From the NCBI GenBank assembly GCA_965224245.1, contig OZ245046.1, positions 2,656,001 to 2,720,000 of the forward strand: a stretch of 64,000 nucleotides of DNA, written 5' to 3'. The stretch is from Candidatus Eiseniibacteriota bacterium (lineage in GTDB: Bacteria; Eisenbacteria; RBG-16-71-46; CAZAMP01). The stretch's first letter is position 1. Each line of letters begins with the position of its first letter. The notes under the pieces were generated by a model. It was not told the DNA's origin, ran no database searches, and worked only from the letters and a program-made list of their open reading frames with translations. Shown piece by piece: positions 39,068 through 57,010 of this stretch. The translations under genes were made by a program, and so were the position numbers.

Positions 39068-39108
39068 AGGAGCCCACGTCACGGAGCCCAGGTAAAGGAG
39101 CCACGGTC

Positions 39109-40329: not shown

Positions 40330-40356
40330 GGTCCCCAGCGTAGCGAGTCGATTCGG

Positions 40357-41301
40357 ATGCAACACATCGTGCTACTGGGTCCCCAGCGCCTCTCGACCAC
40401 CGTCGGTCTGGCCATCACCGACCTCGAGCTCGAGGGGCCGCTGGCCACCGTGACCGCCGGATGGCGGGAGCGAGAGGACGAGGTCGCCGAGCTGGACGAC
40501 GCCCTCGGCGTCCCCACCGTGAACCTGCGTCTCTACCATCGGCTCGAGGACATGGTCCGGCGCGACCCCGAGCTGCTCGAGATCCTGCGCAAGTGGCACG
40601 ACCGCGCGAGAGAGATCCAGAGGATCTACCGGATCCAGCTGGCGGGGGCGCTGGAGAGCGCCCGAACGCTGCTCGGCCGACCGGAGTCCGGTCCACACGC
40701 GGAGGCGGTGCGCGAGTCGGCGATCGACATCATCCGGCGCGTGGACGCCGAGCACGAGGACCGGAAGTCGCTCGATCACGAGGCCGTGCTCAGGGAGTTC
40801 GACATCCTGCAGCGCGACATCGTGGCCGCGGAGCGCGCCGCGGTGGGCGAGGTGCTGGACGGCTGCACGGGGCTGGTCATCCCCGGCGGTCATGTGGGCG
40901 TGCTCCGCAACCGGCTGTGGCTCTTCGACGTCCTCGGTCGGATCTCCGATCGCCCCATCCTGGCCTGGTCGGCCGGCGCGATGGTGCTCTCGGAGCGAGT
41001 GGTGCTGTTCCACGACAGCCCGCCTCAGGGGGCCGGCAATGCCGAGGTGTTCGAGCGCGGGTTCAACCTGTGTCCGAAGATCGTGCCGCTCCCCCATGCC
41101 CGGCGCCGCCTCCGGCTCGGTGACGAGATGCGGGTCTCGCTCTTCGCCCGACGCTTTCGCCCGTCGATGTGCGTCGTCATGGACGACGGCGGCCGCATCG
41201 ACTGGATCGACGACCGATACGTCCCCCACGACGACGTGCACCGGCTCACGGTCGACGGGCACGTGGATCCCCTGACCGAGCCGTTCGGGGGGCTGTCGTG
41301 A
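40357..41301 (+). CDS. Type 1 glutamine amidotransferase-like / peptidase S51 (dipeptidase E, cyanophycinase fold) protein
   Basis: VTAGW, IPGGHV, nucleophile elbow AWSAGAM and LPH. Contains a long helical insert. Confidence 0.75.
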   Translation: MQHIVLLGPQRLSTTVGLAITDLELEGPLATVTAGWREREDEVAELDDALGVPTVNLRLYHRLEDMVRRDPELLEILRKWHDRAREIQRIYRIQLAGALESARTLLGRPESGPHAEAVRESAIDIIRRVDAEHEDRKSLDHEAVLREFDILQRDIVAAERAAVGEVLDGCTGLVIPGGHVGVLRNRLWLFDVLGRISDRPILAWSAGAMVLSERVVLFHDSPPQGAGNAEVFERGFNLCPKIVPLPHARRRLRLGDEMRVSLFARRFRPSMCVVMDDGGRIDWIDDRYVPHDDVHRLTVDGHVDPLTEPFGGLS

Positions 41302-42446
41302 ATCCCGTCGGCACCCGGAAGATCCACCGGCTCCTGACCGAGACGCCGCTCGACGACGCGGCGATCGATGCGTTCCTGGCCGAGAATCCACCCCCGATCG
41401 CCGAGGATGCCGGCGTCACGTTCATCTACCGGGGCGCGGCGGACGCGGTGTACCTCCACCACTGGATCTACGGCCTGGAGTCGGCCAAGGCGTTCCACCG
41501 GGCCGGCGAGTCCGACCTGTGGTATCGCTTCGAGGACATCCCGGCCCACTCGCGCGTGGAGTACAAGTTCGAGGTGGTCAACGGTGACGAGCACCGGCTG
41601 ATCCGCGATCCGTTGAACCCGGCGCTCGCACACGATCCGTTCGGGGCCAACTCGGTCTGTCACGGGGCGGGCTACGAGACGCCCGACTGGATCGCCCCCG
41701 ATCCCGAGGCACGAGAGGGCGCCCTCGAGGATCACGCTGTCAGAAGCCCGTCGTTCGGCGGCCGGCGTCGGGTGACGCTGTACTTCCCCGCGCGGTTCCG
41801 CCGGACGCGACGCTACCCGCTCTTGATCGTGCACGACGGGGGTGACTTTCTCCGCTACGCCTCGATGAAGACCGTGCTCGACAACCTGATCCACCGGCTC
41901 GAGATCCCGCCGATGGTGGTGGCGCTGACCCACCCGGTGGCCCGGAACGACGAGTACGTCATCAACGACGCCCATGCGACGTTCATCACCCGCGAGCTCG
42001 GGCCCTGGCTGGAGAAGAGCTACCCCCTGATCCCCGAGCCGTCGTCCCGTGGTCTCATGGGGGCGAGCCTGGGCGGTGTGGCATCGTTCTACACCGCATG
42101 GAAGACGCCCGGGCACTTCGGCCGGCTCCTGATCCAGTCCGGCTCGCTGGCGTTCACCGACATCGGTCCCAACCGGCGCGGGCCGGTGTTCGAGCCGATC
42201 GTCACGTTCATGAACGCGTACCGCGACGAGCCGGTGAAGATCACCAACCGGCTGTTCCAGAGCTGCGGCATCTACGAGTCCTTGATCTACGAGAACCGCT
42301 CGCTGATGCCACTGCTCCAGACGACGGGGATGGAGATCCGCTACGTCGAGGCGCGGGACGGGCACAACTGGGAGAACTGGCGGGATCGGCTCCGGGAGGG
42401 TCTCTCGTGGCTCTTCCCGGGCCCGCTGTGGATGGACTACGAGTAG
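41298..42446 (+). CDS. Alpha/beta-hydrolase esterase (Fes-like) with N-terminal Ig/CBM48-like domain
   Basis: EYKF.......DPLNP in the N-domain, YPLL.V.DG, GASLGG nucleophile elbow and DGHNW.NWR. Confidence 0.85.
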   Translation: MNPVGTRKIHRLLTETPLDDAAIDAFLAENPPPIAEDAGVTFIYRGAADAVYLHHWIYGLESAKAFHRAGESDLWYRFEDIPAHSRVEYKFEVVNGDEHRLIRDPLNPALAHDPFGANSVCHGAGYETPDWIAPDPEAREGALEDHAVRSPSFGGRRRVTLYFPARFRRTRRYPLLIVHDGGDFLRYASMKTVLDNLIHRLEIPPMVVALTHPVARNDEYVINDAHATFITRELGPWLEKSYPLIPEPSSRGLMGASLGGVASFYTAWKTPGHFGRLLIQSGSLAFTDIGPNRRGPVFEPIVTFMNAYRDEPVKITNRLFQSCGIYESLIYENRSLMPLLQTTGMEIRYVEARDGHNWENWRDRLREGLSWLFPGPLWMDYE

Positions 42447-42459
42447 CTCGCCTCGCGGT

Positions 42460-42486
42460 CGCCGCCGCCGCCGCCGCCGCCGCCGC
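42460..42486. repeat. (CGC)9 trinucleotide microsatellite, intergenic
   Basis: 27-nt perfect repeat read directly, 13 nt after the esterase stop. Confidence 0.9.
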
Positions 42487-42673
42487 GATGACACCAAATC
42501 GAAACATCAGGACCTGGTGCTCAGATATAGTACAATCCGGTCCGACGACGGCACGTTGCCGGTCCGGGGCATCCTCACCGCGGGCTCGACGTCGCCGGGA
42601 GCCACCGCGCGGCATTGATGGCGCGCCGGACGCGCCGAGACGTGGATGGCCGCGCAGAACCGGGAGGTGCCTC

Positions 42674-43726
42674 GTGCAGGACGTTTCCCCGGCGCGCATG
42701 GGCGCTGCATTCGTCGTGACGGCCTGGCTCTTGGTCCTCGGATGCGCCTCCAACCGATCCACGTTCGTGTATCGCCTGCCGTACGAGACGGGCACTCGCG
42801 TCCTGGTGTGGCAGGACCACGAGACGCACGACAACTGGCTCGATCTGGCCGGCACCGACGGTGAGGCGCCGTACCAGGTCGTCGCGGCCCGACCCGGCAT
42901 CGTCCGCTTCCTCGAAGACGACAACGAGCTCAACTGCCCGACCGGCAAGTGCGAGAACAACTTCGTCTGGATCCAGCACGAGCCCGGCGACGAGTGGACC
43001 ATGTACGTCCACCTCGCCACGGGAACCGTCACCAGCCCGCCTCCGTTCGGGGCGGGCCTTCAGAGCGGCGATCGGGTCTGCGCAGGGCAGTACCTCGGCA
43101 ACGAGGGCAACGTCGGCATGGCGGACGGTGACAACCAGGGCCGGCATCTGCATTTCCACGTGGCCGTGCCCGACGACCCCGCCACGGCGAGCCCATCGCA
43201 CTTTGCCGGTGACATCGAGGCGACGTACAGGATCCCTCGGCTCTGCGGAGTACCCGGCGGGACCGTCGTGAAGGATCGGACGTACACGGCCATCCCGTGC
43301 GCAGGAAGCACCTGCCTGCGATCGGTCGAATCGCCATCCACCGAGGGACGGTGCGAGCGTCGCCCCGGCGGAGAAGTCTGTGTGCAAGAGGTGCATAGCG
43401 GAGCATCGGAAACAATCTACACGCGCGGCGTCGACTTCGACGCCACCTCGCTTCGACTGGACGTCGAGTGGTGTCCGACGGCGGACTGCGATCCCGACGT
43501 GGACGTGGGGAGGGCGATCCGCGTGATCGTGTTCCCCGACTCGCCCGACGCCGAACCGATCTCGTTCGTCGTGAGCTGCGAGCGTCGACGAATCACCGAA
43601 AACGTCGAGAACGTCCGACAGGTCGTCATCCGTCCGTCGCCCGAGCTCAGCGTCGAGAACGTGGCCTGCGACGGCAACGAGTTCCCCGCTGCGTTCGCGA
43701 GGTGGGAGATCTGCGAATGTGAATGA
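42674..43726 (+). CDS. M23 family metallopeptidase, probable lipoprotein, with Cys-rich C-terminal region
   Basis: GGAGG RBS with GTG start, lipobox LVLGC, H..W.D, VVAARPG.V, Y.HL and HLHFHV. Confidence 0.8.
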   Translation: MQDVSPARMGAAFVVTAWLLVLGCASNRSTFVYRLPYETGTRVLVWQDHETHDNWLDLAGTDGEAPYQVVAARPGIVRFLEDDNELNCPTGKCENNFVWIQHEPGDEWTMYVHLATGTVTSPPPFGAGLQSGDRVCAGQYLGNEGNVGMADGDNQGRHLHFHVAVPDDPATASPSHFAGDIEATYRIPRLCGVPGGTVVKDRTYTAIPCAGSTCLRSVESPSTEGRCERRPGGEVCVQEVHSGASETIYTRGVDFDATSLRLDVEWCPTADCDPDVDVGRAIRVIVFPDSPDAEPISFVVSCERRRITENVENVRQVVIRPSPELSVENVACDGNEFPAAFARWEICECE

Positions 43727-43794
43727 GCCGCCGCGTGATCCGCGCCCGAGCCGATGCATGCGCCGGAAGACGGCTCCGCGACCCCGCGCTGGCT

Positions 43795-45585
43795 CTACAG
43801 CGGCCAGATCCTCGGAATCGCCAGCGTCGCGATCACCCAGAACAGCACGTTGAGCGGGATCCCGGCCCTGAGGAAGTCCGTGTAGCGATACCGGCCCGGA
43901 CCGTAGACCATCAGGTTCGTCTGGTATCCCACCGGGGTGGCGAACGCCGCGGACGCGCCGAACGCGATGGCCATCATGAACGGCCACGGGCTCGCTCCGA
44001 GCTCGGCCGCCGCGCCGATGCCGATCGGGGCCAGGAGCACCGCGGTCGCGTTGTTGGACATCACCGCGGTCAGCAGCGACGCCAGGAGATAGAACAGCGA
44101 GACCAGGAACGTGGGCCCCAGCACGTCCGACAGCGACATCATCGCACCGACGAGGAACCCCGCTGTGCCCGTGGTCTCCATGGCCAGCCCCAGGGGGATC
44201 ATGCCCGCGAGGAGGAAGATCACCATCCAGTCGATGGTCTCGTAGGCCTCCTTGAGCGAGACGCATCCGGTCCCCACCATGGCCAGCGCGCCGAGCACCG
44301 CCGCGACCATGATCGGAAAGACGTGCAGCGCGGCCGCGATCACGACCAGCGCCACGATGCCGATGGCCAAGAGGGACCGCTTGCGCCGGATCCGCGGCAC
44401 GTCGATCTCGCGGAGCACGAGAAAGTCCGGCGTGTCGAACAACGTGTCGATGACCGCTCGGCGACCTTGTAGCAGGAGCGTGTCGCCCGGCTCCAGACGG
44501 ATCTCGGCGATCTTCCGGCGGATCGTGCGGCCGTGCTTTCGCACCGCGAGCGCGAACACGCCGTAGCGCCGCCGAAAGTCGGCCTCCTTCAGCGACGAGC
44601 CCACGAGCGACGAGCTCGGCGAGATGACGCACTCCACGAGCGCGGTCATGTCCGAGGCCAGGTTCTCGTCGGCGAACTTGGCCTCGGCCACCAGCGAGAG
44701 GTTCTCCATGTCGGCCAGGCGCACGATGTCGTCGGCGTCGCCGCGCACCAGGAGCCGGTCTCCGGTCTCCAGCGGCGTGTCGCGCAGACCGAACCAGCGC
44801 ACCTCTTCCCCGCGCGTGATCTGGAGCACGTTCACATCGTAACGCTCGCTGAGGCGCGCCTGCACGAGGGTCCGACCGAGAAGGGTCGAGTTCGGCGTGA
44901 CCATCAGACCCGACAGGTAATCGCTCATCCGGTACTTCCGGGTGAGGGCCGAGATGTGCTCGCGAACGGGCAGGATTCTCGGCGCGACCCAGATGAGGTA
45001 GGCCAGCGCCACCACGAAGAACGGCAGGCCGAGCTTGGCCATCTCGAACATCGGGAACTGACCGATCCCGTGCTCGGCCGAGATCTCGCTCACGATGACG
45101 TTGGTGGACGTCCCGATCAGCGTGCAGGTGCCGCCCACGATGGCGATGAACGAGAGCGGCATCAGGATCTTCGACGCGCCGATGTCGTACTGGCGGGAGA
45201 TGGTCAGCGCGATGGGCAGGAACACGGCGATGGTGGCGGTGTTGTTCACGAACGCCGACAACGCCCCCACCGTGATCAGGAGGATGACCACGACGCTCCG
45301 CTTGTCGTCCTTGGCGGCGCCCACGATCTTGCCACTGATCCAGTTCACCGCGCCGGTCCGGACCAGTCCGCCGGACAGGATGAACATCGACGCCACGGTC
45401 ACGGTCGCGGGGTTGCTGAAGCCGACGAAGACGTCGTTGGCCGGCGGGAAGCGGTCGCGGAAGAGCCCGAGCACCATCAGCGAGGCCAGGACGAGCACGG
45501 ACACGAGATCCGCGCGCACCCGCTCGGTGCCAAACAGCACGATGGACGCCACGATCAACACGTGGATGATCACGATGTCGGCCAC
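43795..45585 (-). CDS. SLC13/DASS family permease with two TrkA-C (RCK-C) domains
   Basis: GFSNPA, SAF.NNT, GG.CTLIGTSTN, SNNATA and TPVGYQTN.MV.GPG.Y. Confidence 0.92.
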   Translation of the reverse strand: MADIVIIHVLIVASIVLFGTERVRADLVSVLVLASLMVLGLFRDRFPPANDVFVGFSNPATVTVASMFILSGGLVRTGAVNWISGKIVGAAKDDKRSVVVILLITVGALSAFVNNTATIAVFLPIALTISRQYDIGASKILMPLSFIAIVGGTCTLIGTSTNVIVSEISAEHGIGQFPMFEMAKLGLPFFVVALAYLIWVAPRILPVREHISALTRKYRMSDYLSGLMVTPNSTLLGRTLVQARLSERYDVNVLQITRGEEVRWFGLRDTPLETGDRLLVRGDADDIVRLADMENLSLVAEAKFADENLASDMTALVECVISPSSSLVGSSLKEADFRRRYGVFALAVRKHGRTIRRKIAEIRLEPGDTLLLQGRRAVIDTLFDTPDFLVLREIDVPRIRRKRSLLAIGIVALVVIAAALHVFPIMVAAVLGALAMVGTGCVSLKEAYETIDWMVIFLLAGMIPLGLAMETTGTAGFLVGAMMSLSDVLGPTFLVSLFYLLASLLTAVMSNNATAVLLAPIGIGAAAELGASPWPFMMAIAFGASAAFATPVGYQTNLMVYGPGRYRYTDFLRAGIPLNVLFWVIATLAIPRIWPL

Positions 45586-45770
45586 GAGTCCCTCCGAACG
45601 CCTCGACCGAGATCCGGCTGGCTCGCGGCCGGACGAGCCGGTAGCCTAGCCGGCGAGCGGCCCGCCACCCACGAGTTCGCGATCCAGAATGCTCAACCTT
45701 CTACCACGAAAGAGCTTAGACTGGAACTCGAAGTGACGGCATTCCGACGTGGACCGGACCCGAGGAGCCC

Positions 45771-47801
45771 ATGCCGACCGATCCTCCCGAGATGAGCCCG
45801 GCGCCCCCGAGAGACCCTGCGGTCCCGGCTCCTGCCTCGCGCCGAGCGCCGGGGGGATGCACCGGCACGCGCCACGGGACGCGCCCGCTCCACCGCGGCG
45901 GCGGCGACCCCGGCCCCTCGCGCATTCGCCCGTCGCGGATGAGCCGGCGCCGGACGGCGGTTCTCGTCAGCGTCCACGTGGTGTTCGCGATCCATCTGAC
46001 GCACTGGTGGATGACCGGCACCACGCTCTCGCCGATCGAGCCCTCCGAGTCGATGGAGACGCTGGAGACCGGGCGCGTCAACGCGGGCTTCATCTTCTTC
46101 GCGGCGGCGATCCTGGCCACGCTCGTGTTCGGGCGGATCTTCTGCGGCTGGGGCTGCCACATCGTGGCGCTCCAGGATCTGTGCGGCGCGCTGATGAAGC
46201 GGGCCGGCATCCGGCCGGTCCTGTTCCGCTCGCGACTCCTCGCATGGGTGCCGGTCGGGCTGGCGTTCTACATGTTCGTCTGGCCCACGCTCCGTCGCGA
46301 GGTGATCGCCCCGCTGGTCGCGCGTGCCTGGCCCGGCCAGGCCCGATGGCTGACCGACGTCGCTCCCTTCCCCGGCTTCGAGAACCACCTGGTCAAGTCG
46401 GACTTCTGGGCCACGTTTCCGCCGATCGCGGTGGCGATCCCGTTTCTCCTGATCTGCGGGTTCGCCGTCGTGTACGTGCTCGGCGCCAAGGGCTTCTGTG
46501 CCTACGGGTGCCCCTACGGCGGCGTCTTCGGGCCGGTGGACAAGCTGGCCGCGGGCAAGATCGTCGTCGATCTGGATGCCTGCGAGGGGTGCGGCCACTG
46601 CACCGCGCGCTGCACGTCGAACGTGCGGGTTCACGAGGAGATCCAGACCCACGGAATGGTCGTCGACACCGGGTGCATGAAGTGCATGGACTGCGTCAGC
46701 GTGTGCCCGAACGACGCGCTCTCCTATCGCTTCGCACGGCCGACGCTCTTCGCGGGCTCGCCCCGGCGCCCGCCGAAGCGCCGGCGGTACGACGTGAGCC
46801 TCGGCGCAGACGCCCTGCTCCTGGCGCTGTTCCTGGCGGCCTTCCTCGGCCTGCGCGGAGCCTATGGTCTCGTGCCGATGCTGATGTCGGTCGGGGTGGG
46901 GCTCACGACGGTGTTCCTGGCCTGGAAGCTCGTGCGCGTCGTCCGGGAGCGCCGTGCGCGGCTCCATCGCTTCGAGCTCGCGCGCGACGGTCGGCTCACC
47001 CGTTCGGGTCGCGTGTTCCTCGCGATCGCCGGGGGGTGGCTGCTGCTCGTGGTGCACACCTCGGCCGTCAACGTGCTGCGACTGCGCGGAGAGGCGCTCG
47101 ACCGGAGCATCGCCGTGTCACGCGAGGCGGTGTTCTCGGGTGACCGGTCCGAGGTTCCGTCGGCGATGCGAGAGCGTGCAGCGCGCGCCCGACGGCTGCT
47201 CGGGCTGGCCGCGCCGCTCTGGTCCGGCGGCGCCGGGCTGATCGCGACGCCGGGGCTGGATCTGCGTCTGGCCTGGCTGAGCCTGGTGGCCGGGGACCCC
47301 GAGGATGCGCTGCCTCGACTCGACGCACACCGCCGCCGCCACGGGGAGACGCCCGAGCTCACCGCGGACCTGGCGCGCGTGCGAGCGCTGACGGGCGACA
47401 CGGACGGCGCGATCGCGGCGCTCGAGGCGGCGATCACGGCCGTGCCGAGTTCCGAGGCGCGTGCGGCGCTCGCGCGGCTCTACCTGGACTCGGGGAATCC
47501 GGAGGCGGCGGTGCACGTATACGAGGAGACGACCGAGCCCCTCACCCGCGAGGATCGGCGGCGGCTCGCCGAGCTCTATCTCCGGGTGGGGAGGCCGGAC
47601 TCGGCGATCCAGCTGATGCAGCGGGCGAGCGTCGCCGCGCCGGACGACGTCGAGTCGATCCTGGACCTGGTGCACGTGATGAACGCCGCGGGGCGGACGT
47701 CCCTCGCGATCTCACAGCTCCGCCGGGCGCTCTCGCGCCACCCCGACGACCCGGCGCTGTCGAGGCTGCTCGAGATGCTCGAGCGCGAGTCATCCCGATG
47801 A
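45771..47801 (+). CDS. Membrane polyferredoxin (4Fe-4S binding, NapH/CcoG-like) with C-terminal TPR (start uncertain)
   Basis: GRIFCGWGC, FCAYGCPYG, CEGCGHCTARC and CMKCMDCVSVCP. Several TM helices and a TPR tail. Confidence 0.85.
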   Translation: MPTDPPEMSPAPPRDPAVPAPASRRAPGGCTGTRHGTRPLHRGGGDPGPSRIRPSRMSRRRTAVLVSVHVVFAIHLTHWWMTGTTLSPIEPSESMETLETGRVNAGFIFFAAAILATLVFGRIFCGWGCHIVALQDLCGALMKRAGIRPVLFRSRLLAWVPVGLAFYMFVWPTLRREVIAPLVARAWPGQARWLTDVAPFPGFENHLVKSDFWATFPPIAVAIPFLLICGFAVVYVLGAKGFCAYGCPYGGVFGPVDKLAAGKIVVDLDACEGCGHCTARCTSNVRVHEEIQTHGMVVDTGCMKCMDCVSVCPNDALSYRFARPTLFAGSPRRPPKRRRYDVSLGADALLLALFLAAFLGLRGAYGLVPMLMSVGVGLTTVFLAWKLVRVVRERRARLHRFELARDGRLTRSGRVFLAIAGGWLLLVVHTSAVNVLRLRGEALDRSIAVSREAVFSGDRSEVPSAMRERAARARRLLGLAAPLWSGGAGLIATPGLDLRLAWLSLVAGDPEDALPRLDAHRRRHGETPELTADLARVRALTGDTDGAIAALEAAITAVPSSEARAALARLYLDSGNPEAAVHVYEETTEPLTREDRRRLAELYLRVGRPDSAIQLMQRASVAAPDDVESILDLVHVMNAAGRTSLAISQLRRALSRHPDDPALSRLLEMLERESSR

Positions 47802-47831
47802 GCGGGTCCCTCGATCCGCCGACCCGGAGCG

Positions 47832-48614
47832 TCAGTCGGCGTACACCGACTTGATCCCGCTCCAGCTAACGGTCGAGACCGGCGTGGCCGGCGGAAGCAT
47901 CAGGAGTTGCTCGGTGGCCGCCTGGTACACCGTCCGGGTCGCCGCGTCCTGGACGAACACGACGACGTCCACGTTGGCGAGGTCCCAGCCGTCCTCGGCG
48001 TCTACGGCGATCGGCACGTCCACCACGTCGCCGGCCATCCGGGCCAGCGAGACCGACACACCGTCGGCGCTCGGATGGAAGCGCCGGAACACGTGGTGGT
48101 GCACGTCGATCCCGTTGGGAAACGCCTGGTGGATGTCGCTCTCGGTCAGCGCCAGCATCACGCGGACGTCGCCCTCGATCGGCGTCTCGACACCGATGCG
48201 CACGTTCACCGTGCCCGCGCCGTCGGTTTCGTTCACCGAGCCCGAGAGGGCGAGCGTCACCGGCGCCGGCACCGCGACCTCGCTGGCGTAGACCGAGGGA
48301 TAGCCGGACGTCGACGCCGTGCGGCCCGCGACGCGGATGGACGGCGCCGATCCGACGCCGTAGAACGAGCGGCGCGCGAGGTTCTCGTCCTGGTTCTCCA
48401 GGAAGAACGGATCACCGGCGTATGGAAACGGCACGTGGTACTCGATGGCCACCACGTCGGGGTGATCGAAGATCCAGGACTTGAGGGTCGGATCCACCGA
48501 CCCGCAGATCCCTCAGGCGTAGTTCGTGAAGTGCTCGATCAGCACCGACCGCGGCGCGGACGAAGCGAGGGTCGGGATGGCGAGCAGGGCCGCGAGCGCG
48601 AGTCGGCTGAACAT
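47832..48614 (-). CDS. Secreted Omp28-related thioredoxin-fold protein with in-frame TGA (probable selenocysteine, UxxC) and C-terminal SWxxIK motif
   Basis: ORFs 48513-48767 and 47832-48497 are in the same frame, separated only by TGA at 48513-48515: VLIEHFTNYA-U-GICGSVD...VVAIEYH....DPF......R..FYGV..APS. GGAGA RBS, signal peptide and SECIS-like hairpin. Confidence 0.8.
48485..48503 (-). promoter_or_regulatory. Putative bacterial SECIS hairpin
   Basis: GGGTCGG-TGGAT-CCGACCC, a 7-bp stem after a 9-nt gap from the TGA. The loop begins 16 nt after the TGA and has G at position 2. Confidence 0.65.
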
Positions 48615-48717
48615 GGTGTCTCCAGCGTACGGTCGGTGAGAGCCGGTCCCGGCTGAGCCGGGTGACGTCGAGGGTCTGGATTGACGGTGTTTCGATGCGT
48701 CATCGGCCCGAATCGGT

Positions 48718-49215
48718 TCAGACCTCGGCCGCCAGACAGCACTTCTTGTACTTCTTGCCGCTCCCACACGGACAGGGGTCGTTCCGGCCGACCTTGGGCT
48801 CGTCCCGGTGAATGGGCGATTGCTTCACCATCTCGCCCTCCGAGAAGACCCAGGTCCCGTCCACGCGTTCGAACCTGGCGAGCTCGTGGTGCGTGGCCAC
48901 CTTGTCTCCGACCTTGTACGTGGCCGTGAACTCGACGGACCCCTGATCGTCGTCCTTCCCGCCGGCCTCGGTCGACTTGACCTCGAAGCCGAGCCACGTG
49001 GCGGCCTCGCCCCACTGCTCGGTCTCCTTCGGGTCGTAGTCGGTCCGGGCGCTGGGATGCAGGGTCTCGCCGAGGTAGTCGTACGCCTTCTTCACGTAGG
49101 CCGAGTACCGCGAGCGCATCAGCTCGACGGCGGTCTCGGGCGTCTCGGCGCCCGAGATGAAGCGACCGCAGCACGTCTCGTACGCCGGGCCGGCTCCGCA
49201 GGGACATGCACTCAT
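48718..49215 (-). CDS. ychJ: YchJ family protein with SEC-C motifs
   Basis: CPCG...[20 protein letters not shown]...F and [18 protein letters not shown]. Confidence 0.9.
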
Positions 49216-49366
49216 CAGATGGATCCTCCAGGGTTTCCGACCGGATAGTGTGCCTCAAAACCCGGTCCTGACCAATCCCCGAAGAGCCCTGCTCCCCCGC
49301 GGAGCCGCCCGGCGGACGCCGTCCCTCGGGCCCCATCCGCGCTCCGCGCCCGTTGGACCGGGAGCA

Positions 49367-50857
49367 CTAGAAACGAGACTGGAAGGTCTCCAGCTCCCAC
49401 TTGTCCTTCTTCTCGTTGAGCGTGGCGCAGAGGATCTTCTTGCCATCGGTCCGGACGTTCACGAGCCCGTACGTCACCGAGTCGACCACCCGGGTGCCGC
49501 GATGATACGAGCGGGAGACCTTCTCCGGGTTCAGGTCTCCCGAACGCTGTACCTCGTAGCGAAGGGTCGCCTTCTCGGCCGGCGTCAACGTCACACCGGC
49601 CGGCGCCGTTCCCGGGTAGTCGGCGTCCTGGATGGACGTCAGCCGACCGATGTCGATGCTGCGCGAGATCTCGGTGGAGTACACGAGCGGCGTCTTCATC
49701 TCGTCGTTGGCGATCGTCACGTGGCCCACCTGGCCCGCCGTCGCCACGATGGAGGGGCGCGGATGGGAGTGTCCCTCGTTGTCGCCGGACGAGATCACGG
49801 TCGCCGCGGCGCCCATCGCCTGGAGAAATGTATACGAGACGTCCTCGCTGCCGTGGTGGCACCCCTTGGCCACGTCACACGCGAGATCCAGCCGACTGTC
49901 CACATCCTCGAGGAGAGCGGCCATCGATCGCTTGTTCAGGTCGCCGGTGAGAAGGATGCGCGTGTTCTTGTAGTCGAGTCGCAAGAGAAGGCTGTGCCCG
50001 TTGGTGTTCTGGCTGGTCGACGACGTGTAAGCGCGGTACGCGGGTCCTCCCGCGCCGTCGTCGAACTCCACCGGCGCGAGGATCTTCAACGTCGCCCGCG
50101 GCTTCCCCGAACGGGGCTCGAAGCCCGGCACCCAGCCGTCGTGATGGCTCAGGCGCCGGATGTCGCAGCCGTTGGCGATCGCGGCGGTCATGAAGTTCGC
50201 CCACTCTCCCTGGAGCTTAGGGCCGGGCTTCGATGGATCCAGCGCGTCCTTGACCGCGGTGCGATTGCCGAGGAGCTGAACCAGGAACTTCGTGCCACCG
50301 ATCTTCCGGATCGGACCGAGCCATCTCCCGCCGCCGGGCTTCCGCCACCACGACACCCCCGCGTGGTACAGGACGTCGACGTCGACGCCCTTGGCGTCGA
50401 GCTCCGCGGTCGCCTCCGGGGTCGTGCTCAGCAGGTCCCAGAGCCCACCGTAGTGGTCGGAGTCACAGTGCGAGGCAATCATCGCGTCGAGCTTGATTCG
50501 GGTCTTTCGGTAGTCCTTGGCGAACTTCCAGTCCACGAAGTCGGCTGCGTTCTTGCCCGTCGCCTGGCGCTCTCGGATGTACCCGCCGTCGATCAGGATG
50601 TGCCTGCGATCGGGTGTGCAGATCAGAACGCCATCCCCTTGGCCGACGTCGATGAAGTAGACCTCACACAGCGCCTCGCCGCCGAGTGCGCTCGTGTCGA
50701 CCGTTCCCGTACGGCCTCGCGCCTTCACCGTGGTCTTGCCGCCGCTCGCGCTCACGACCTCGACCTGATCGCCCCACAAGAGCTCGATCTTCCGGGTCTT
50801 TCCTCCCGAGACGTACCTGAGCGTTGCCGTGTCGGTGCGGACGTAGTCCTTCGCCAT
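49367..50857 (-). CDS. Stand-alone ComEC/Rec2-like metallo-beta-lactamase-fold hydrolase
   Basis: FIDVGQGD, LIDGG, SHCDSDHYGG, LTGD, HHGS and HSHP. GGAGG RBS. No TM segments. Confidence 0.85.
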   Translation of the reverse strand: MAKDYVRTDTATLRYVSGGKTRKIELLWGDQVEVVSASGGKTTVKARGRTGTVDTSALGGEALCEVYFIDVGQGDGVLICTPDRRHILIDGGYIRERQATGKNAADFVDWKFAKDYRKTRIKLDAMIASHCDSDHYGGLWDLLSTTPEATAELDAKGVDVDVLYHAGVSWWRKPGGGRWLGPIRKIGGTKFLVQLLGNRTAVKDALDPSKPGPKLQGEWANFMTAAIANGCDIRRLSHHDGWVPGFEPRSGKPRATLKILAPVEFDDGAGGPAYRAYTSSTSQNTNGHSLLLRLDYKNTRILLTGDLNKRSMAALLEDVDSRLDLACDVAKGCHHGSEDVSYTFLQAMGAAATVISSGDNEGHSHPRPSIVATAGQVGHVTIANDEMKTPLVYSTEISRSIDIGRLTSIQDADYPGTAPAGVTLTPAEKATLRYEVQRSGDLNPEKVSRSYHRGTRVVDSVTYGLVNVRTDGKKILCATLNEKKDKWELETFQSRF

Positions 50858-51074
50858 CATGTGCCTCCATCGGATCGAGCTCTCCACGCGAGAGGAGCGC
50901 GTGGTCGACATGTACCAATTCCAAATGAAGTAGCGCCGATAATTCAACTATGGGAACACGATTCTGCGACGCGCGCAAGCACTTGCGGTCCGGGCGGCTG
51001 CGCGGTGGACGTGACGGCGCCCGATCGCGATACTCCGGAGTTTCCGGATCGGATCCTCCAGGCAGGAGCCACGC

Positions 51075-52670
51075 GTGAGCGTCACCCCGGCCCTCGTGCT
51101 CCGAGGGATCTCGAAGTCGTACTTCGGCAATCAGGTGCTCAGAGACGTCGACCTCGACGTCGCGCCTGGCGAGATTCACGCGCTGGTCGGCGAGAACGGC
51201 GCCGGCAAGTCCACGCTGATGAACATCCTGTTCGGCATGCCGGTCATCCACGAGACCGGCGGATACGAGGGTGAGATCGAGCTCGGCGGCCGACTCGTGC
51301 GCCCCACCGCCCCCGCACACGCGATGGCCCACGGCGTCGGCATGGTGCATCAGGAGTTCATGCTGCTGCCGGGCTTCACGATCACCGAGAACATCAAGCT
51401 CAACCGGGAGCGCACGCGACCCACGATCGCGTCGCGCGTCCTCGCGCCCATCGGCGGCCGTACCCGGAACGCGCTGGAGACGCTCGACTATCCACGGATG
51501 AACGCCGACACGCGCCGGGCGCTGGACCAGATCGGCATGTCGCTCGACGAGGGGCTGCCCATCGGCGCGCTTCCGGTGGGTCACCTGCAGTTCGTGGAGA
51601 TCGCACGCGAGGTGGACAAGGAGAACGCACGGGTGCTCGTGTTCGACGAGCCGACGGCCGTGCTCACCGAGTCCGAGGCCGACGAGCTCCTGGGCGTCAT
51701 GCGACGACTCGCCGAGAGCGGCATCGCCATTCTCTTCATCACGCACCGTCTGGACGAGGTGTGCGCGATCGCCGATCGGATCACGGTGCTCCGGGACGGC
51801 GCGTGTGTGGGGCGACTCGATCGCGGCGAGGCCGCACCGGAGCGCATCGCCGAGCTCATGATCGGACGGGAGCTGAAGCCACGGACGACGTCGACGCGGG
51901 GCGACCAGACGGCCGAGCCGCTCCTGGTCATCGAGGATCTTCACGTGGAGATGCCGGGTGAGGGCGTCCACGGACTCTCGCTGTCGATCGGAGCCGGCGA
52001 GATCCTCGGCATCGCCGGTCTGGCCGGTCAAGGGAAGCTCGGGATCGCGAACGGCGTCATGGGCCTTCAGCCCGCGCGCGGGCGCGTGACGTTCCGGGGA
52101 CGCGACGTACCGCTGGGCAGCCCCATCGACGCGATCGACGCGGGGCTCGCGTTCGTCAGCGAGGACCGGCGGCGCGTGGGGCTTCTCCTCGACGAGTCGA
52201 TCGAGCGGAACATCGCCGCCACCGCGATCACCGCACAGGGGCGCTTCCTCCGGGGCGCCGGACCGCTCGCAATGGTCGACGAGACGTCGGTTCGGGCCCA
52301 TGCCGAGAAGATGGTCGGTGACTTCGACATCCGCTGCCGCGGCCCCCGCGACATCGTGCGGCGACTCTCCGGCGGCAACCAGCAGAAGGTCTGCCTGGCG
52401 CGGGCGATCACGCTGGAGCCCGAGCTCCTGTTCGTCTCCGAGCCCACGCGCGGCGTCGACGTGGGCGCGAAGGAACGCGTGCTGAACCTCCTCGTGGACA
52501 TGAACCGCTCCCGGGGCACGACGATCGTCCTGACCTCGAGCGAGCTCGGCGAGCTCCGGCAGGTGGCCGATCGGATCGCGGTCGTGGACGGCGGTCGCGT
52601 GGTCGGCATCCTGCCCCCCGATGCCCGCGACGTGGAGTTCGGGCTCCTGTTCGGCGGAGGCGGCGCGTGA
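51075..52670 (+). CDS. Sugar-type (CUT2) ABC transporter ATP-binding protein, two NBDs
   Basis: GENGAGKS, DEPT, ITHRL, LSGGNQQK and EPTRG.DVGAK. Confidence 0.93.
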   Translation: MSVTPALVLRGISKSYFGNQVLRDVDLDVAPGEIHALVGENGAGKSTLMNILFGMPVIHETGGYEGEIELGGRLVRPTAPAHAMAHGVGMVHQEFMLLPGFTITENIKLNRERTRPTIASRVLAPIGGRTRNALETLDYPRMNADTRRALDQIGMSLDEGLPIGALPVGHLQFVEIAREVDKENARVLVFDEPTAVLTESEADELLGVMRRLAESGIAILFITHRLDEVCAIADRITVLRDGACVGRLDRGEAAPERIAELMIGRELKPRTTSTRGDQTAEPLLVIEDLHVEMPGEGVHGLSLSIGAGEILGIAGLAGQGKLGIANGVMGLQPARGRVTFRGRDVPLGSPIDAIDAGLAFVSEDRRRVGLLLDESIERNIAATAITAQGRFLRGAGPLAMVDETSVRAHAEKMVGDFDIRCRGPRDIVRRLSGGNQQKVCLARAITLEPELLFVSEPTRGVDVGAKERVLNLLVDMNRSRGTTIVLTSSELGELRQVADRIAVVDGGRVVGILPPDARDVEFGLLFGGGGA

Positions 52671-53722
52671 TTCGTCTGCTCGCCCGGATCGGGCTCACGC
52701 GGCTGACGCTCTCGGCGTTTCTGCTCGTCTTGTGGGGCGCGAGCTATCTCGGCACCGATCTCGACTTCGGCATCCTGTTCACCGACTGCCTGGTGCGCGC
52801 GGGCATGAACGGGATCCTCGTGCTAGCGCTGGTGCCCGCCGTGCGCGCCGGCGTCGGGCTCAACTTCGGGATCCCGCTGGGGATCGTGTGCGGTCTCTTC
52901 GGCATGGTCGTCTTGATGGATCGAGACATCCGCGGGCCGGTGGGCCTCTTCGGCTCGATGGCGCTCGGCGCCGCGGTGGGTGCGATCGCGGGGTATCTCT
53001 ACGCGCTCCTCCTCGAGCGCGTGAAGGGCCAGGAGATGATGGTCGGCATCTACGTAGGCTTCGCGTCGGTGGCCGGTGCGTCGATCTTCTGGCTCGTGGT
53101 GCCGGTGGCGAACCCCGAGCTGGTCTGGCCGCTCGGCGGCGTGGGGCTGCGGAACACGCTCGTGCTCGCCGACTACTTCGAGCGCGTGCTCGACGCCTTC
53201 GGCTCGTTTCCGCTGGGCAACGGGACGTTCCCCACGGGGCTTCTCGTGTTCTGGCTGGGGGCGTGCGGGCTCTTCGCCCTGTTTCTGCGCACCCGGATCG
53301 GCGTGGCGCTGTCGTCGGCCGGCGCCAACCCGCGCTTCGCCGAGGCCAGCGGCGTGAACGTCCGGCGGATGCGCGCGCTCGGGATCATCCTGTCGACGTC
53401 GATGGCGGCGGTCGGCATCGTCGTGTTCAGCCAGTCGTACGGGTTCGTGCAGCTCTACAAGGCACCGCTCCTGATGGCGTTCCCGACCGTGGCGGCACTC
53501 CTGATCGGGGGCGCCAGCGTGCAGCGGGCGTCCATCGCGCACGTGATCGTGGGCACGTTCCTGTTCCAGAGCGTTCTGACCACGTCGCTGCCGCTCGTCA
53601 ACGAGCTCGTGGCGACGCGCGGCAGCGGTGGAGCCGAGCTCGGCAACATCCCCGAGATCGCGCGGCTCATCATCTCGAACGGCATCATCCTCTACGCGCT
53701 CACGCGGCGGGAGCGGTCATGA
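52667..53722 (+). CDS. ABC transporter permease (DUF3798-associated)
   Basis: Polytopic membrane protein with G.GLNFG, FA.ASG.N...MR and AALLIGGA. Confidence 0.88.
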   Translation: MIRLLARIGLTRLTLSAFLLVLWGASYLGTDLDFGILFTDCLVRAGMNGILVLALVPAVRAGVGLNFGIPLGIVCGLFGMVVLMDRDIRGPVGLFGSMALGAAVGAIAGYLYALLLERVKGQEMMVGIYVGFASVAGASIFWLVVPVANPELVWPLGGVGLRNTLVLADYFERVLDAFGSFPLGNGTFPTGLLVFWLGACGLFALFLRTRIGVALSSAGANPRFAEASGVNVRRMRALGIILSTSMAAVGIVVFSQSYGFVQLYKAPLLMAFPTVAALLIGGASVQRASIAHVIVGTFLFQSVLTTSLPLVNELVATRGSGGAELGNIPEIARLIISNGIILYALTRRERS

Positions 53723-54798
53723 TCGCGCGCTTCGTCCTGCCGAACCTCGTGCCCCTGCTCTTCGGCGTGCTGTGCGTGTTCGGCGTGGTCGCGGCCGGCA
53801 TTCCCTGGCCGTTCCTGGCCAACGAGATCCTGACCCGGCTGGCGCGGAACCTCTTCCTCGTGCTCTCGCTGATCATCCCGGTGGTCGCCGGAATGGGGCT
53901 CAACTTCGGGATCGTGGTCGGCGCGATGTGCGGTCAGGTGGGGCTCATCGTGGTCGAGAACATGGCCACCCTCGAGCGTGGGGTGACCGGCGGCCTGCAC
54001 GGCCTCGACGCGATGGGGCTGGCGATCCTGGTGGCGTTTCCCCTGAGCCTCGTCTTCGGATGGCTCACGGGCCTGCTCCTGAACAAGGCGAAGGGCCGCG
54101 AGATGATCACCGGGATGATCCTCGGGTTCTTCGCGAACGGCATCTATCAGCTCGCGTTCCTGTTGATGGCGGGGCCGATCATCCCGATCCGGAACGAGCG
54201 GATCCTCCTCCCCACCGGCGTCGGGCTTCGCAACACGATCGATCTGATCGCGACCAAGCAGCAGCTCGACGAGCTTCTCCGACCCTCGATCCCGTTCCTG
54301 GGGTCCCGGCTGTTCCTGCCGCTGGCCACGTTCGGGGTGATCGCGCTCCTGAACGTGGGCCTCAGGTGGTTCCTGCGCACGAAGGCGGGACAGGATCTGC
54401 GCGCCGTGGGACAGGACACGCACGTGGCCGAGATCGCCGGAATCGCGGTGAACGCGAACCGCGTGCGGGCGATCGTGCTGTCCACCGTTCTCGGGTCGAT
54501 CGGTCACATCATCTGGCTCTCCAACATCGGCGCCATGAACACCTACCAGAGCCACGAGCAAGTCGGGCCCTACGCGATCGCGGCGCTCCTCGTCGGCGGC
54601 GCGACCGTCGCGCGCGCGACCATCCGGCACGCGATCGTGGGCACGTTCCTCTTCCACACGCTGTTCATCGTGTCGCCGCTGGCCGGCCAGCGGCTGCTCG
54701 GCAGCGCACAGATCGGCGAGTACTTCCGGGAGTTCATCGCCTACGCGGTGATCGGGGTCACGCTGGCGCTGCATGCGTGGAAGCGGGGACGGTTCTGA
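53719..54798 (+). CDS. ABC transporter permease (DUF3798-associated)
   Basis: L.RL.RN.FLVLSLIIP..AG.GLNF, KGREMI and AALLVGGA. Confidence 0.88.
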   Translation: MIARFVLPNLVPLLFGVLCVFGVVAAGIPWPFLANEILTRLARNLFLVLSLIIPVVAGMGLNFGIVVGAMCGQVGLIVVENMATLERGVTGGLHGLDAMGLAILVAFPLSLVFGWLTGLLLNKAKGREMITGMILGFFANGIYQLAFLLMAGPIIPIRNERILLPTGVGLRNTIDLIATKQQLDELLRPSIPFLGSRLFLPLATFGVIALLNVGLRWFLRTKAGQDLRAVGQDTHVAEIAGIAVNANRVRAIVLSTVLGSIGHIIWLSNIGAMNTYQSHEQVGPYAIAALLVGGATVARATIRHAIVGTFLFHTLFIVSPLAGQRLLGSAQIGEYFREFIAYAVIGVTLALHAWKRGRF

Positions 54799-54834
54799 GC
54801 CGCACGCACGGCGGGCGATCGCCGCGGTGATGCC

Positions 54835-55281
54835 CTGGCGGTGGAGGCTCTTCACCCGCCCCCAGGACACGCGGCGTACCGGCGTCGCATCCGCGCTGGA
54901 GAACGTACCGGCGATGGTGAAGGGATGAGGACAGTCCGCGACGGGATCCATCGCGTCGACGCGTGCGTACACGCGGAGAATGCCCGACGCATACTCGGAG
55001 ATGAGCCACGAACACGACTCGAAGTCGTCGGCGACGCCTTCGCCGGTCTGGACCATCTCCTCCACCGCGAACGTGAAGATCGCGTCGGGCATCTCGGCGG
55101 CACGCGCGGCGAGGGTCCGGAGAAGGTCGTCGCGTCGCCGAAGAACTCGACGGGCACCGTGTACGGATCACCGGACTCGAACACTTTCCCGGTATCGATG
55201 TCGAACAGATCCAGGGCGCCGGCGAGCGCGGGGGCGCCCGACGATCAGGGAGGTCGTGAGAAGAACCGTGCGCGCCCTCAT
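54835..55281 (-). pseudogene. Disrupted gene for a small secreted protein with C-terminal SWGRVK motif
   Basis: GAGGAG RBS with ATG at 55281. Signal peptide MRARTVLLTTSLIV|GAPALA needs a frameshift near 55238. A second, compensating shift near 55110 restores the frame to ...ATPVRRVSWGRVKSLHR. The expected stop appears as CAG at 54835-54837. Confidence 0.6.
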
Positions 55282-55694
55282 GAGCCGACTCCTCGAGTGC
55301 GGGTTCACATCGACGGTCCCGAGGAATGACACCGCGCCCCGCTCGACCACGGCTGCGCACGCCGCCTCGCTGGCATCCGACGCCCCATGCCGACCCCATC
55401 GTCACGCTGCGGACTCGCCATGACGCACGGCACGGCGATCGGCCGACCCGGACCGGGTGCGACACGACGGACCGACACCCTGGTCATCGCGACGGGCCGT
55501 GCTGGACCGCTCTCCAGCGGATTCGCCGTTCTCCACCGGACTCGTCGGCGGGACATCCCGGGCGCGCCGGACGAGGGGACCGGAACGCCGGTCCCCGCCC
55601 GGGAATTGCATACCGAGCCGTTCCGCCCCCGTGTTGCCAACCCCAGACCCGCAGGCTAGGCTCTCAGCAACACGCTCGAACCCAGGAGGATCGA

Positions 55695-56936
55695 ATGCGC
55701 CCCATCCGAGGGCTTCGCTGGCTGAGTCCCATCGCGCTCACCGTCACGCTCGCGCTCGCCGCCGGCTGCTCCGGAGACGGAAGCGGCGACACGCAGAGGA
55801 CCACTCCCGGCTCCGACGCCGCCGCGACGTCGGGGGCCGGCGACGCCGCCATGGCCGACGGCCACCGCGCCGGCATGACCACCGCCGGTGCGGAGGGCAC
55901 CCACGACCTCGACTTCAAGGTCGGGATCATGACCGGCACCGTCTCCCAGGGCGAGGACGAGTACCGCGGTGCCGAACGCGTGATCCGGAAGTACGGCTCG
56001 GACCAGATCCGCCACGTCACATATCCCGACAACTTCATGACCGAGCAGGAGACGATGATCGCGCAGATCCTGAACCTCGCGGCCGACTCCGAGGTGAAGG
56101 CGATCGTCCTCGCCCAGGGCGTCCCGGGATCGATGGCGGCGATCAAGAAGGTCAAGGAGCTCCGGCCCGACATGCTCTTCCTGATCGACAACCCGCACGA
56201 GGATCCGCATCAGATCAGTCAGTACGCCGACGTGTGCGTGATCCCCGACGACCTGAAGCGCGGCGAGACGATCATGGAGCTCTCGCAGAAGATGGGGGCG
56301 ACCACGTTCATCCACTACTCGTTCCCCCGCCACATGAGCCAGGAGCTCCTGGCGCGCCGCAAGGACATCATGCAGGGCTACGCCGAGACGCACGGAATGG
56401 AGTTCATCTACGTCAACGCTCCCGATCCCACCGGCGATCAGGGGCTACCGGGCGCACAGAAGTTCATCCTGGAGGACGTGCCGCGGCAGATCGCGCAGCA
56501 CGGGAAGAGCACGGCCTTCTTCGCCACGAACTGCGGCATGCAGGAGCCGCTGATCCGCGCCGCGCTCGACGGCGGGGCGATCTTCCCCGAGCAGTGCTGT
56601 CCGTCCCCCACGCACGGATACCCGGGTGCGCTCGGCATCGCGATCTCGGACGAAGACGCCGGCAACATGGCGGCCATCCGGGATGCGATCGAGGAGAAGG
56701 TGACCGCCGCGGATCAGAACGGACGCATGGCCACCTGGCCCGAGTCCGTGGGCATGGTCGGGATCGCCGCGCTGACCGAGCTCGCGATCAAGGGCGTCCG
56801 CGGCGAGGTGAAGGTGAACGATCAGGCGGCGCTGACCGCGGAGTTCGAGACCGCGGCCGGAGTCGACGTGACGATGGTGCCGTTCGAGGACAAGGACAAC
56901 TACTACATGTTCCTCCTCGACAGCGTGATCTTCTAG
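55695..56936 (+). CDS. DUF3798 family ABC substrate-binding lipoprotein
   Basis: AGGAGG RBS, lipobox LAAGC, IMTGTVSQGEDEYR, TYPDNF..EQET, HYSFPRH, APDP and CCPSP..GYPGALG. Confidence 0.9.
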   Translation: MRPIRGLRWLSPIALTVTLALAAGCSGDGSGDTQRTTPGSDAAATSGAGDAAMADGHRAGMTTAGAEGTHDLDFKVGIMTGTVSQGEDEYRGAERVIRKYGSDQIRHVTYPDNFMTEQETMIAQILNLAADSEVKAIVLAQGVPGSMAAIKKVKELRPDMLFLIDNPHEDPHQISQYADVCVIPDDLKRGETIMELSQKMGATTFIHYSFPRHMSQELLARRKDIMQGYAETHGMEFIYVNAPDPTGDQGLPGAQKFILEDVPRQIAQHGKSTAFFATNCGMQEPLIRAALDGGAIFPEQCCPSPTHGYPGALGIAISDEDAGNMAAIRDAIEEKVTAADQNGRMATWPESVGMVGIAALTELAIKGVRGEVKVNDQAALTAEFETAAGVDVTMVPFEDKDNYYMFLLDSVIF

Positions 56937-57010
56937 CGCCGCCTTCCCGACGCGATCGCCGAACGCCGAGCCGCCTCGGTGTCGCCGATCGCCCGGGCCC
57001 CGGGGGCCGG

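Follow-up and report, generated by a model that had tools for sequence, protein, structure and literature searches.

A Candidatus Eiseniibacteriota gene for a probable Omp28-related selenoprotein is split by annotation at its in-frame UGA codon

Introduction

The closest described relative of the gene reported here is NF045500, the 'Omp28-related selenoprotein', which a table in a 2026 review (PMC13188914) equates with the 'Hypothetical protein GOS_C' and gives the motif UxxC, where U stands for selenocysteine (Sec). GOS_C had been described from ocean reads by Zhang and Gladyshev (2008, PLoS Genet, PMC2398784). Our gene lies on the minus strand of a 64,000-nucleotide stretch (the window) of contig OZ245046.1 from a Candidatus Eiseniibacteriota genome (GenBank assembly GCA_965224245.1, positions 2,656,001 to 2,720,000), where it occupies window positions 47832..48614. 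It contains one in-frame TGA codon at which annotation breaks it in two, and we estimate the probability that it is a true selenoprotein gene, mis-split by annotation, at about 0.9.

GOS_C and the window protein share a thioredoxin-like fold, a UxxC motif with Sec in the first position, Cys-type homologs and a downstream bacterial selenocysteine insertion sequence (SECIS). Among the NCBIfam models, NF045500 matches the window protein best (E 1.1e-12), and the score of 48 bits misses its cut-off of 200 bits. The same cut-off was reached by no gene in 41 genomes of the same class, with a best score of 61.2 bits. GOS_C came from marine reads, whereas the named orthologs of our gene (L048-L053) are all from Candidatus Eisenbacteria/Eiseniibacteriota metagenome-assembled genomes (MAGs). 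The gene belongs to a distinct Eisenbacterial clade within a known kind of thioredoxin-fold UxxC selenoprotein. The novelty that a first-pass annotation of the window had attached to it was overstated, as an Omp28-related selenoprotein of this fold and motif is already curated under NF045500 (GOS_C).

A useful comparison at the structural level is HBP35 of Porphyromonas gingivalis (PDB code: 5y1a). According to its functional study (PMC2907840), HBP35 is active as a thioredoxin in vitro, and mutation of its two active-site cysteines abolishes this activity; it binds hemin, is found on the cell surface, and has a conserved C-terminal domain (CTD) that was proposed to serve in surface attachment. 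The window protein resembles HBP35 in combining a thioredoxin-like domain, with a redox pair spaced by two residues, and a β-sandwich. The two differ in that their sequence identity is 17%, in that HBP35 has CxxC where the window protein has UxxC, and in that the window copy has a 17-residue tag in place of a CTD of the type IX secretion system (T9SS).

Results

One reading frame with a single internal TGA

The gene can be read as one frame that opens with the ATG at 48614-48612, is interrupted only by a TGA at 48515-48513 and closes with a stop TGA at 47834-47832. If the internal codon is translated as U, the frame has 260 codons, the internal UGA counted and the final stop excluded. The product would begin with MFSRLALAALLAIPTLASSAPRSVLIEHFTNYA-U-GICGSVDPTLK, and the local reading around the internal codon is ...SVLIEHFTNYA-U-GICGSVDPTLK. 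Apart from this TGA, there is no further stop or frameshift in the gene. Under translation table 11 it falls into two open reading frames (ORFs), an upstream piece at 48513..48767 and a downstream piece at 47832..48497, which opens on a GTG within the hairpin described below.

The first-pass annotation, made from the letters of the window, had proposed that these two fragments lie in one frame and are joined by the TGA at 48513-48515, and the translation agrees. Its coordinates and letters all proved correct, with the minus strand left unstated. Candidates for the ribosome-binding site and the signal peptide that it assigned to the upstream fragment are both present, as a GGAG ahead of the ATG and a hydrophobic stretch over the first 20 residues (Table 1), and the protein does end in the SWxxIK tail that it had pointed out. 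Its remark that the downstream fragment has no credible start of its own needs correction, as gene callers use the GTG at 48497-48495 inside the hairpin. It should be mentioned that a start at GTG 48497 would delete both strand 1 and the UxxC motif of the protein.

The TGA column in orthologs and Cys-type relatives

Of the 41 genomes of the class, 14 gave matches to the gene, among them its own. Apart from the gene itself, the six best matches come from five genomes, have 39-46% identity and carry exactly one TGA each; in an alignment of 23 regions the TGA of all six shares the column of the query. In this column 12 of the 23 rows have U and 11 have C; one of the C rows, the paralog L043, is misaligned at its N-terminus and is meaningless at the column. 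A scan of metagenome contigs yielded 17 loci, the 11 closest of which (L060-L070) were examined at the column together with L054 from the genome collection. All 12 have TGA there, L064 and L065 being identical over the stretch compared. The loci L071-L076 (28-33% identity) stand outside this count; five of them resemble Planctomycetes-type Cys forms and one is partial. Overall, the orthologous loci that were read share this TGA column without exception (18 of 18). They have 32-55% identity and come from different genomes and metagenomes: the window gene, six loci from genomes of the class, L054 and 10 distinct loci from metagenomes.

Cys occupies this column in the Cys-type paralogs as well as in five of five relatives from Ignavibacteriales- or Planctomycetes-type records. 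The expectation from the window alone, that the TGA falls on the Cys position of relatives and that homologs should show either Cys or TGA there, is therefore borne out. The motif that had been given for Omp28-type proteins, E.FTxxWCxxC, holds in part: the aligned Cys-type relatives have E.FTNxxCxxC, few of them with a W ahead of the Cys. The alignment also shows protein conservation on both sides of the TGA, so that the gene displays the generic mark of a selenoprotein, namely an in-frame UGA aligned with Cys in homologs and flanked by conserved protein sequence.

The six orthologs of the class have an ATG 33-40 codons before the TGA, several of them with a purine-rich stretch ahead of it (gaggagg, gggag, ggagat). 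Because every ortholog has an ATG and a hydrophobic leader at this distance of 33-40 codons, and a conserved E(H)xTNxx just ahead of the TGA, the upstream piece is under protein-coding constraint in the same frame. Contigs of three sequencing runs have the same letters at the gene, with 0 differences, which confirms the TGA as far as runs of a single sample, possibly the source of the assembly, can do so.

A covarying hairpin downstream of the TGA

A perfect hairpin, GGGTCGG-UGGAU-CCGACCC at 48503-48485, begins 9 nt 3' of the TGA. Its core stem of 7 bp pairs 48503-48497 with 48491-48485 around the loop UGGAU at 48496-48492, and lower pairs extend it to 48476-48512. The spacing from the TGA to the loop is 16 nt, and G is present at loop positions 2 and 3. 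The hairpin is thus as the first-pass annotation had read it, including the 9-nt gap, the distance of the loop and the G at loop position 2. The minimum free energy (MFE) for the 40 nt from the UGA is -22 kcal/mol. The bacterial SECIS (bSECIS) model, as given in the legend of Fig. 2 of the 2026 review (PMC13188914), has a loop of 3-9 nt, a stem of 4-16 bp, a G in the first two loop positions, a distance of 16-37 nt from the UGA and an MFE of ≤-7.5 kcal/mol. The 5-nt loop, the 7-bp stem, the G at loop positions 2-3, the 16-nt distance and the folding energy found here all lie within the ranges stated in that legend.

The 7-bp stem was tested on 18 aligned sequences, in which 94.4% of the 126 cells (18 sequences, seven pairs) pair. 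Changes on both sides occur in four of the seven pairs, over 15 cells, and two pairs never vary. The resulting covariation score of 0.402 compares with a shuffled mean of 0.154 and was reached by 0 of 500 shuffles. In a control in which the 3' arm was slid by 1-3 columns, pairing was 37-66% (maximum 65.9%) with scores of ≤0.149. The loop is UGGAU in 16 of the 18 sequences. The pair that varies most, at columns 26-36 (UA, CG, GC, GU), joins the second position of a variable codon to the synonymous third position of a Pro codon, a link that protein constraint cannot explain. The peptide VDPPLK, which is conserved in the Sec clade only, is the translation of the hairpin. A conserved hairpin had been anticipated for the TGA-bearing orthologs, and the hairpin is indeed conserved, with compensatory changes in four of seven pairs.

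Selenocysteine machinery of the genome

The genome (6.94 Mb in 27 contigs, 97% complete) contains selA, selB, selD and tRNA-Sec, all of them above their curated cut-offs, as a selenoprotein gene in this organism would demand and as the first-pass annotation had expected. The scores are 515.8 bits for selA, 324 bits for selB (353 bits with its C-terminal piece), 378.4 bits for selD and 71.9 bits for tRNA-Sec. The frames of selA and selB have no internal stops. It is noted that the selD of this genome (L010, G000:C1:4218184-4219107, plus strand) is itself a selenoprotein gene of the Sec type. Its known Sec/Cys site carries an in-frame TGA, read as ...SGAG-U-ASK, and an 8-bp hairpin with a GGU loop follows 20 nt 3' of the UGA.

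Predicted fold and likely function

A structure predicted with AlphaFold2 from a 20-row alignment has a mean predicted local distance difference test (pLDDT) score of 89.6 and a predicted template modelling (pTM) score of 0.84. In this model, strand 24-30 is followed by U34 at the N-terminal end of helix 35-49 and by strand 54-60. The invariant P91, just before strand 92-95, takes a cis-Pro-like position, and a β-sandwich starts from about residue 118. The model thus predicts a thioredoxin-like domain whose redox pair occupies the canonical site and, after it, an Omp28-type domain.

Pfam PF11551 (Omp28) matches residues 85-234 with 49.3 bits, above its gathering cut-off of 34.9, which places the protein in the Omp28 family. 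In a Foldseek search against the PDB, the best match of the model is 5y1a (HBP35), with an E-value of 1.1e-13 and a query-normalized TM-score (TMq) of 0.71 over 261 columns. The second is 2axo (Agrobacterium AGR_C_4864), a DUF1223 protein (PF06764) that aligns over the whole length with an E-value of 1e-8 and a target-normalized TM-score (TMt) of 0.64. The likeness to DUF1223 in structure contrasts with a weak Pfam match in sequence (residues 25-222, 17.2 bits against a cut-off of 30.7). The third match, 2r2c (an Omp28 domain, E 1e-4), covers the C-terminal sandwich. When the family profile was used to search the PDB by sequence, the matches were confined to the FlgD-Ig part of orthologs, with none in the thioredoxin-like or Omp28 part. 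The model for Omp28 family outer membrane lipoproteins, NF033782, gives 36.9 bits against a cut-off of 150, and the leader of the window protein has no lipobox Cys. The family NF045500 is characterized by UxxC in a thioredoxin-like fold, and both are present in the window protein, the former in the sequence and the latter in the predicted fold.

Based on the model and on analogy with these proteins, the most likely function is that of an extracytoplasmic (periplasmic or surface-attached) thiol/disulfide oxidoreductase. An exported Sec-containing redoxin was what the first-pass annotation had suggested, and the predicted thioredoxin-like fold with U34 at the N-terminal end of helix 1 agrees with it; export is probable from the leader.

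Representation in protein databases

In a set of 5.8 billion proteins, the window gene is present only as the 221-residue product that starts at GTG 48497 (P0002). The other 15 database matches span 74-84% of the query, and 14 of them begin at (M/V)(V)DPPLK, inside the hairpin just past the TGA. The prediction that standard pipelines would split the gene is confirmed, as the public protein sets contain only products starting 3' of the TGA.

A profile search was made on 1.84 billion representatives, and 15 of the 150 matches listed were fetched and examined. The search profile had lost its N-terminal 39 columns because most alignment rows are truncated, and the column of interest was read from the fetched sequences instead. 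The five high-scoring single-domain matches among them (318-462 bits; P0035, 293 bits) start at or just past the column, and CxxC stands there in each of the 10 full-length proteins (≤280 bits). Among these 15 of the 150 listed matches, we found no Cys form of full length that belongs to the orthogroup.

Discussion

Proposed decoding and alternative explanations

Considering the conserved TGA column, the covarying hairpin and the Sec machinery together, we propose that the ribosome reads the UGA at 48515-48513 as selenocysteine. The hairpin 9 nt 3' of this codon would act as a bacterial SECIS and recruit SelB with Sec-tRNA(Sec), so that Sec is inserted and translation does not terminate at the UGA. 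The product would then consist of an N-terminal signal peptide, a thioredoxin-like domain, an Omp28-type β-sandwich and a short C-terminal tag, in which Sec34 may be the attacking nucleophile and Cys37 may resolve the selenylsulfide.

The TGA might instead be a nonsense mutation or an assembly error in a decaying pseudogene of a Cys-type Omp28-like protein. The three Cys-type paralogs in the same genome (L041, L042, L043) and the truncated product in the databases would suit such a case. We regard it as very improbable, given the same-column TGA in all 18 orthologous loci, the conservation of the protein up- and downstream of it, the otherwise intact frame and the agreement of the contigs of the three runs, albeit from one sample. 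That the TGAs of the orthologs are an artefact of a shared pipeline is implausible in view of the covarying hairpin. Some uncultured bacteria have reassigned UGA, so a reassigned code, or else near-cognate suppression, could also put Trp, Cys or Gly at this codon. This reading has hardly any chance in our judgement, as TGA is also the terminal stop of the gene and of several homologs, the selA and selB frames are free of internal stops in a genome with the complete Sec pathway, and the column pairs with Cys and is followed by a covarying SECIS-like hairpin at the canonical distance.

Translation could also start at GTG 48497, in which case the functional product would be the 221-residue protein and the upstream 33 codons would be a leader peptide or untranslated. 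Gene callers chose this start in the window, as they did a corresponding one for 14 of the 15 other database matches. The product, however, would have no signal peptide and, by the model, would be missing strand 1 and the UxxC of a thioredoxin fold. The GTG lies within the conserved hairpin, and the frame upstream of it encodes a conserved signal peptide and an E-H-x-T-N motif that full-length Cys forms have as well. All of the 10 full-length proteins fetched have CxxC at the place of the UxxC. The GTG start is accordingly unlikely, with only a slim chance of being the functional one.

Several points weigh against our proposal of a selenoprotein. In comparison with dinucleotide shuffles of a 66-nt stretch, the folding energy of the hairpin does not stand out, the sequence being GC-rich (z = -0.42, with 61 of 200 shuffles at least as stable). 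Stability is therefore not above chance, and the case rests on conservation and covariation. The pair at columns 25-37 is unpaired in five of the 18 sequences. The stem is itself translated (G-x-V-D-P-x), and protein constraint may account for part of its conservation, although the covariation at columns 26-36 speaks against this. An Rfam scan of 47600-48800 gave no match at E up to 1 and is uninformative; we know of no general bacterial SECIS model in Rfam. The three runs, which are of one sample, are not independent. A tblastx comparison of window positions 38000-58000 with nine ortholog loci matched the gene itself only, so that there is no conserved neighborhood and no functional hint from it. 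We infer the actual insertion of Sec at residue 34 from sequence, and the redox role, export and localization from analogy and from a signal peptide judged by eye.

Features of the gene

The features of the gene are collected in Table 1.

Table 1. Positions of the probable selenoprotein gene and its parts within the window, with the basis of each assignment.
Feature	Positions	Strand	Basis
Probable selenoprotein gene, full	47832..48614	-	translation with TGA = U, one open frame with 1 TGA
GGAG, Shine-Dalgarno-like	48620..48623	-	read from sequence; 5 nt 5' of ATG
Probable type I signal peptide, residues 1-20 (MFSRLALAALLAIPTLASSA), without lipobox Cys	48555..48614	-	judged by eye
Putative Sec codon UGA, residue 34	48513..48515	-	TGA in 18/18 orthologous loci; Cys in Cys-type relatives
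UxxC redox motif U34-G-I-C37	48504..48515	-	sequence and alignment; in the model at N-terminal end of helix 35-49, after strand 24-30
Putative SECIS element including lower stem	48476..48512	-	folding and covariation on 18 sequences
GTG within hairpin, gene-caller start of 221-residue product	48495..48497	-	ORF list and database products
Predicted thioredoxin-like domain, about residues 23-117	48264..48548	-	predicted secondary structure, invariant columns, Foldseek matches 5y1a and 2axo
Predicted Omp28-type β-sandwich domain, about residues 118-237	47904..48263	-	Pfam PF11551 match; Foldseek 2r2c
C-terminal tag TPVSTVSWSGIKSVYAD	47835..47885	-	genome-wide motif count; orthologs L035, L026 and L063 end alike

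Exchange of Sec and Cys in the family

A maximum-likelihood tree was built from 33 rows, leaving out L043 (misaligned N-terminus), L065 (duplicate of L064), L069 and L070 (short fragments), and L056, L058 and L059, which are near-copies of L057. In this tree 14 rows form an all-Sec clade (support 100/95), within which the window gene branches off first. The tree requires three changes of the Sec label, at least two of which are forced by well-supported branches. Further Sec clades of Omp28-like proteins from Eisenbacteria-type genomes are formed by L038/L039, by L030/L032/L033 and by L054/L067. The hairpins after the TGA in the other Sec clades are different, with loops such as CGUGU or CGUGC. 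Orthologs of the window gene and members of other Sec clades, from three Eisenbacterial Sec clades in all, score 23-59 bits with NF045500, and none of the three further clades reaches its cut-off. The genome of the window combines one Sec form with the three Cys-type paralogs. One of these, L043 (G000:C1:5212586-5216152), has an N-terminal region that does not align in frame: no start was seen for it, and its translation is odd and rich in Arg. A frameshift or a wrongly assigned frame may be the reason.

We tentatively suggest, with more doubt than confidence, that the family represents a natural experiment in which Sec and Cys have been exchanged several times, each Sec clade having its own SECIS and a clade-specific peptide (VDPPLK here), together with two interchangeable C-terminal addresses, a T9SS type A domain and the 17-residue tag TPVxxxSW[GS]x[IV]Kxx[YF]R.

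C-terminal tag, secretion and neighboring genes

Most orthologs have a T9SS type A sorting domain in the place where the window copy has the tag TPV...SWxxIKxxY. The corresponding model TIGR04183 (Por_Secre_tail) gives 23.6-23.7 bits, against a cut-off of 23, for the ortholog L022 and for L038 and L032 from other Sec clades. It does not match the window protein at E up to 1, so the protein does not have the mark of a T9SS type A cargo. Tag-type ends are seen in the orthologs L035, L026 and L063 as well. The only NCBIfam matches of the window protein are the two Omp28 models, and both end by residue 240, ahead of the tag.

Across the genome, 59,396 open segments of ≥60 residues contain 89 occurrences of the motif [ST]W[GSA]x[IVLM]Kxx[YFW]. 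In 74 segments it lies ≤6 residues from the end, and in 67 of these 74 it is preceded by xPx. The reversed motif, used as a control, occurs three times, once at an end. The tag looks like a genome-wide C-terminal sorting tag, a role that we infer for it, and we found no published description of it. A homolog of the SprA/Sov-type T9SS translocon is encoded at G000:C1:2013027-2017832 (minus strand, 540 bits summed), and there are at least 150 FlgD_ig/T9SS-CTD-like matches genome-wide (150 scored of 451 candidates). The predicted secretome of this Eisenbacteria-type genome is very large. We found no paper on Eisenbacteria and type IX secretion.

In the window, a convergent gene at 45771-47801 (plus strand) encodes a protein of 676 residues whose N-terminal half is membrane-like and has the 4Fe-4S domains Fer4_5 and Fer4_7, and whose long C-terminal half is of the TPR type. 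This gene is not conserved beside the orthologs. On the side of the start codon lie genes for a YchJ-like/SEC-C motif protein of 165 residues (48718-49215, minus strand) and a protein of 526 residues with a metallo-β-lactamase fold (49367-50947, minus strand), neither of which is syntenic in the orthologs. A scan for promoters and terminators returned none of either.

Implications

Current knowledge of how selenoproteins are made is unchanged by this gene, and no new mechanism is implied. A literature search gave no paper connecting selenoproteins with Omp28, DUF1223 or Eisenbacteria, and none that mentions both selenocysteine and Candidatus Eisenbacteria; the GOS supplement might contain related sequences. 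The gene extends the range of the Omp28-related/GOS_C selenoproteins from marine reads into Candidatus Eisenbacteria. The clade is wrongly annotated across public data, because the recorded form is without the signal peptide and the active site. Its SECIS, clean and supported by covariation, could be used in tests of SelB specificity in an uncultured phylum. If the C-terminal tag is a minimal secretion or anchoring signal, the protein would be a selenoprotein cargo of an uncharacterized sorting system. With several Sec and Cys clades, some of them in the same genome, the family offers a system for asking why Sec is used over Cys in extracytoplasmic redox proteins.

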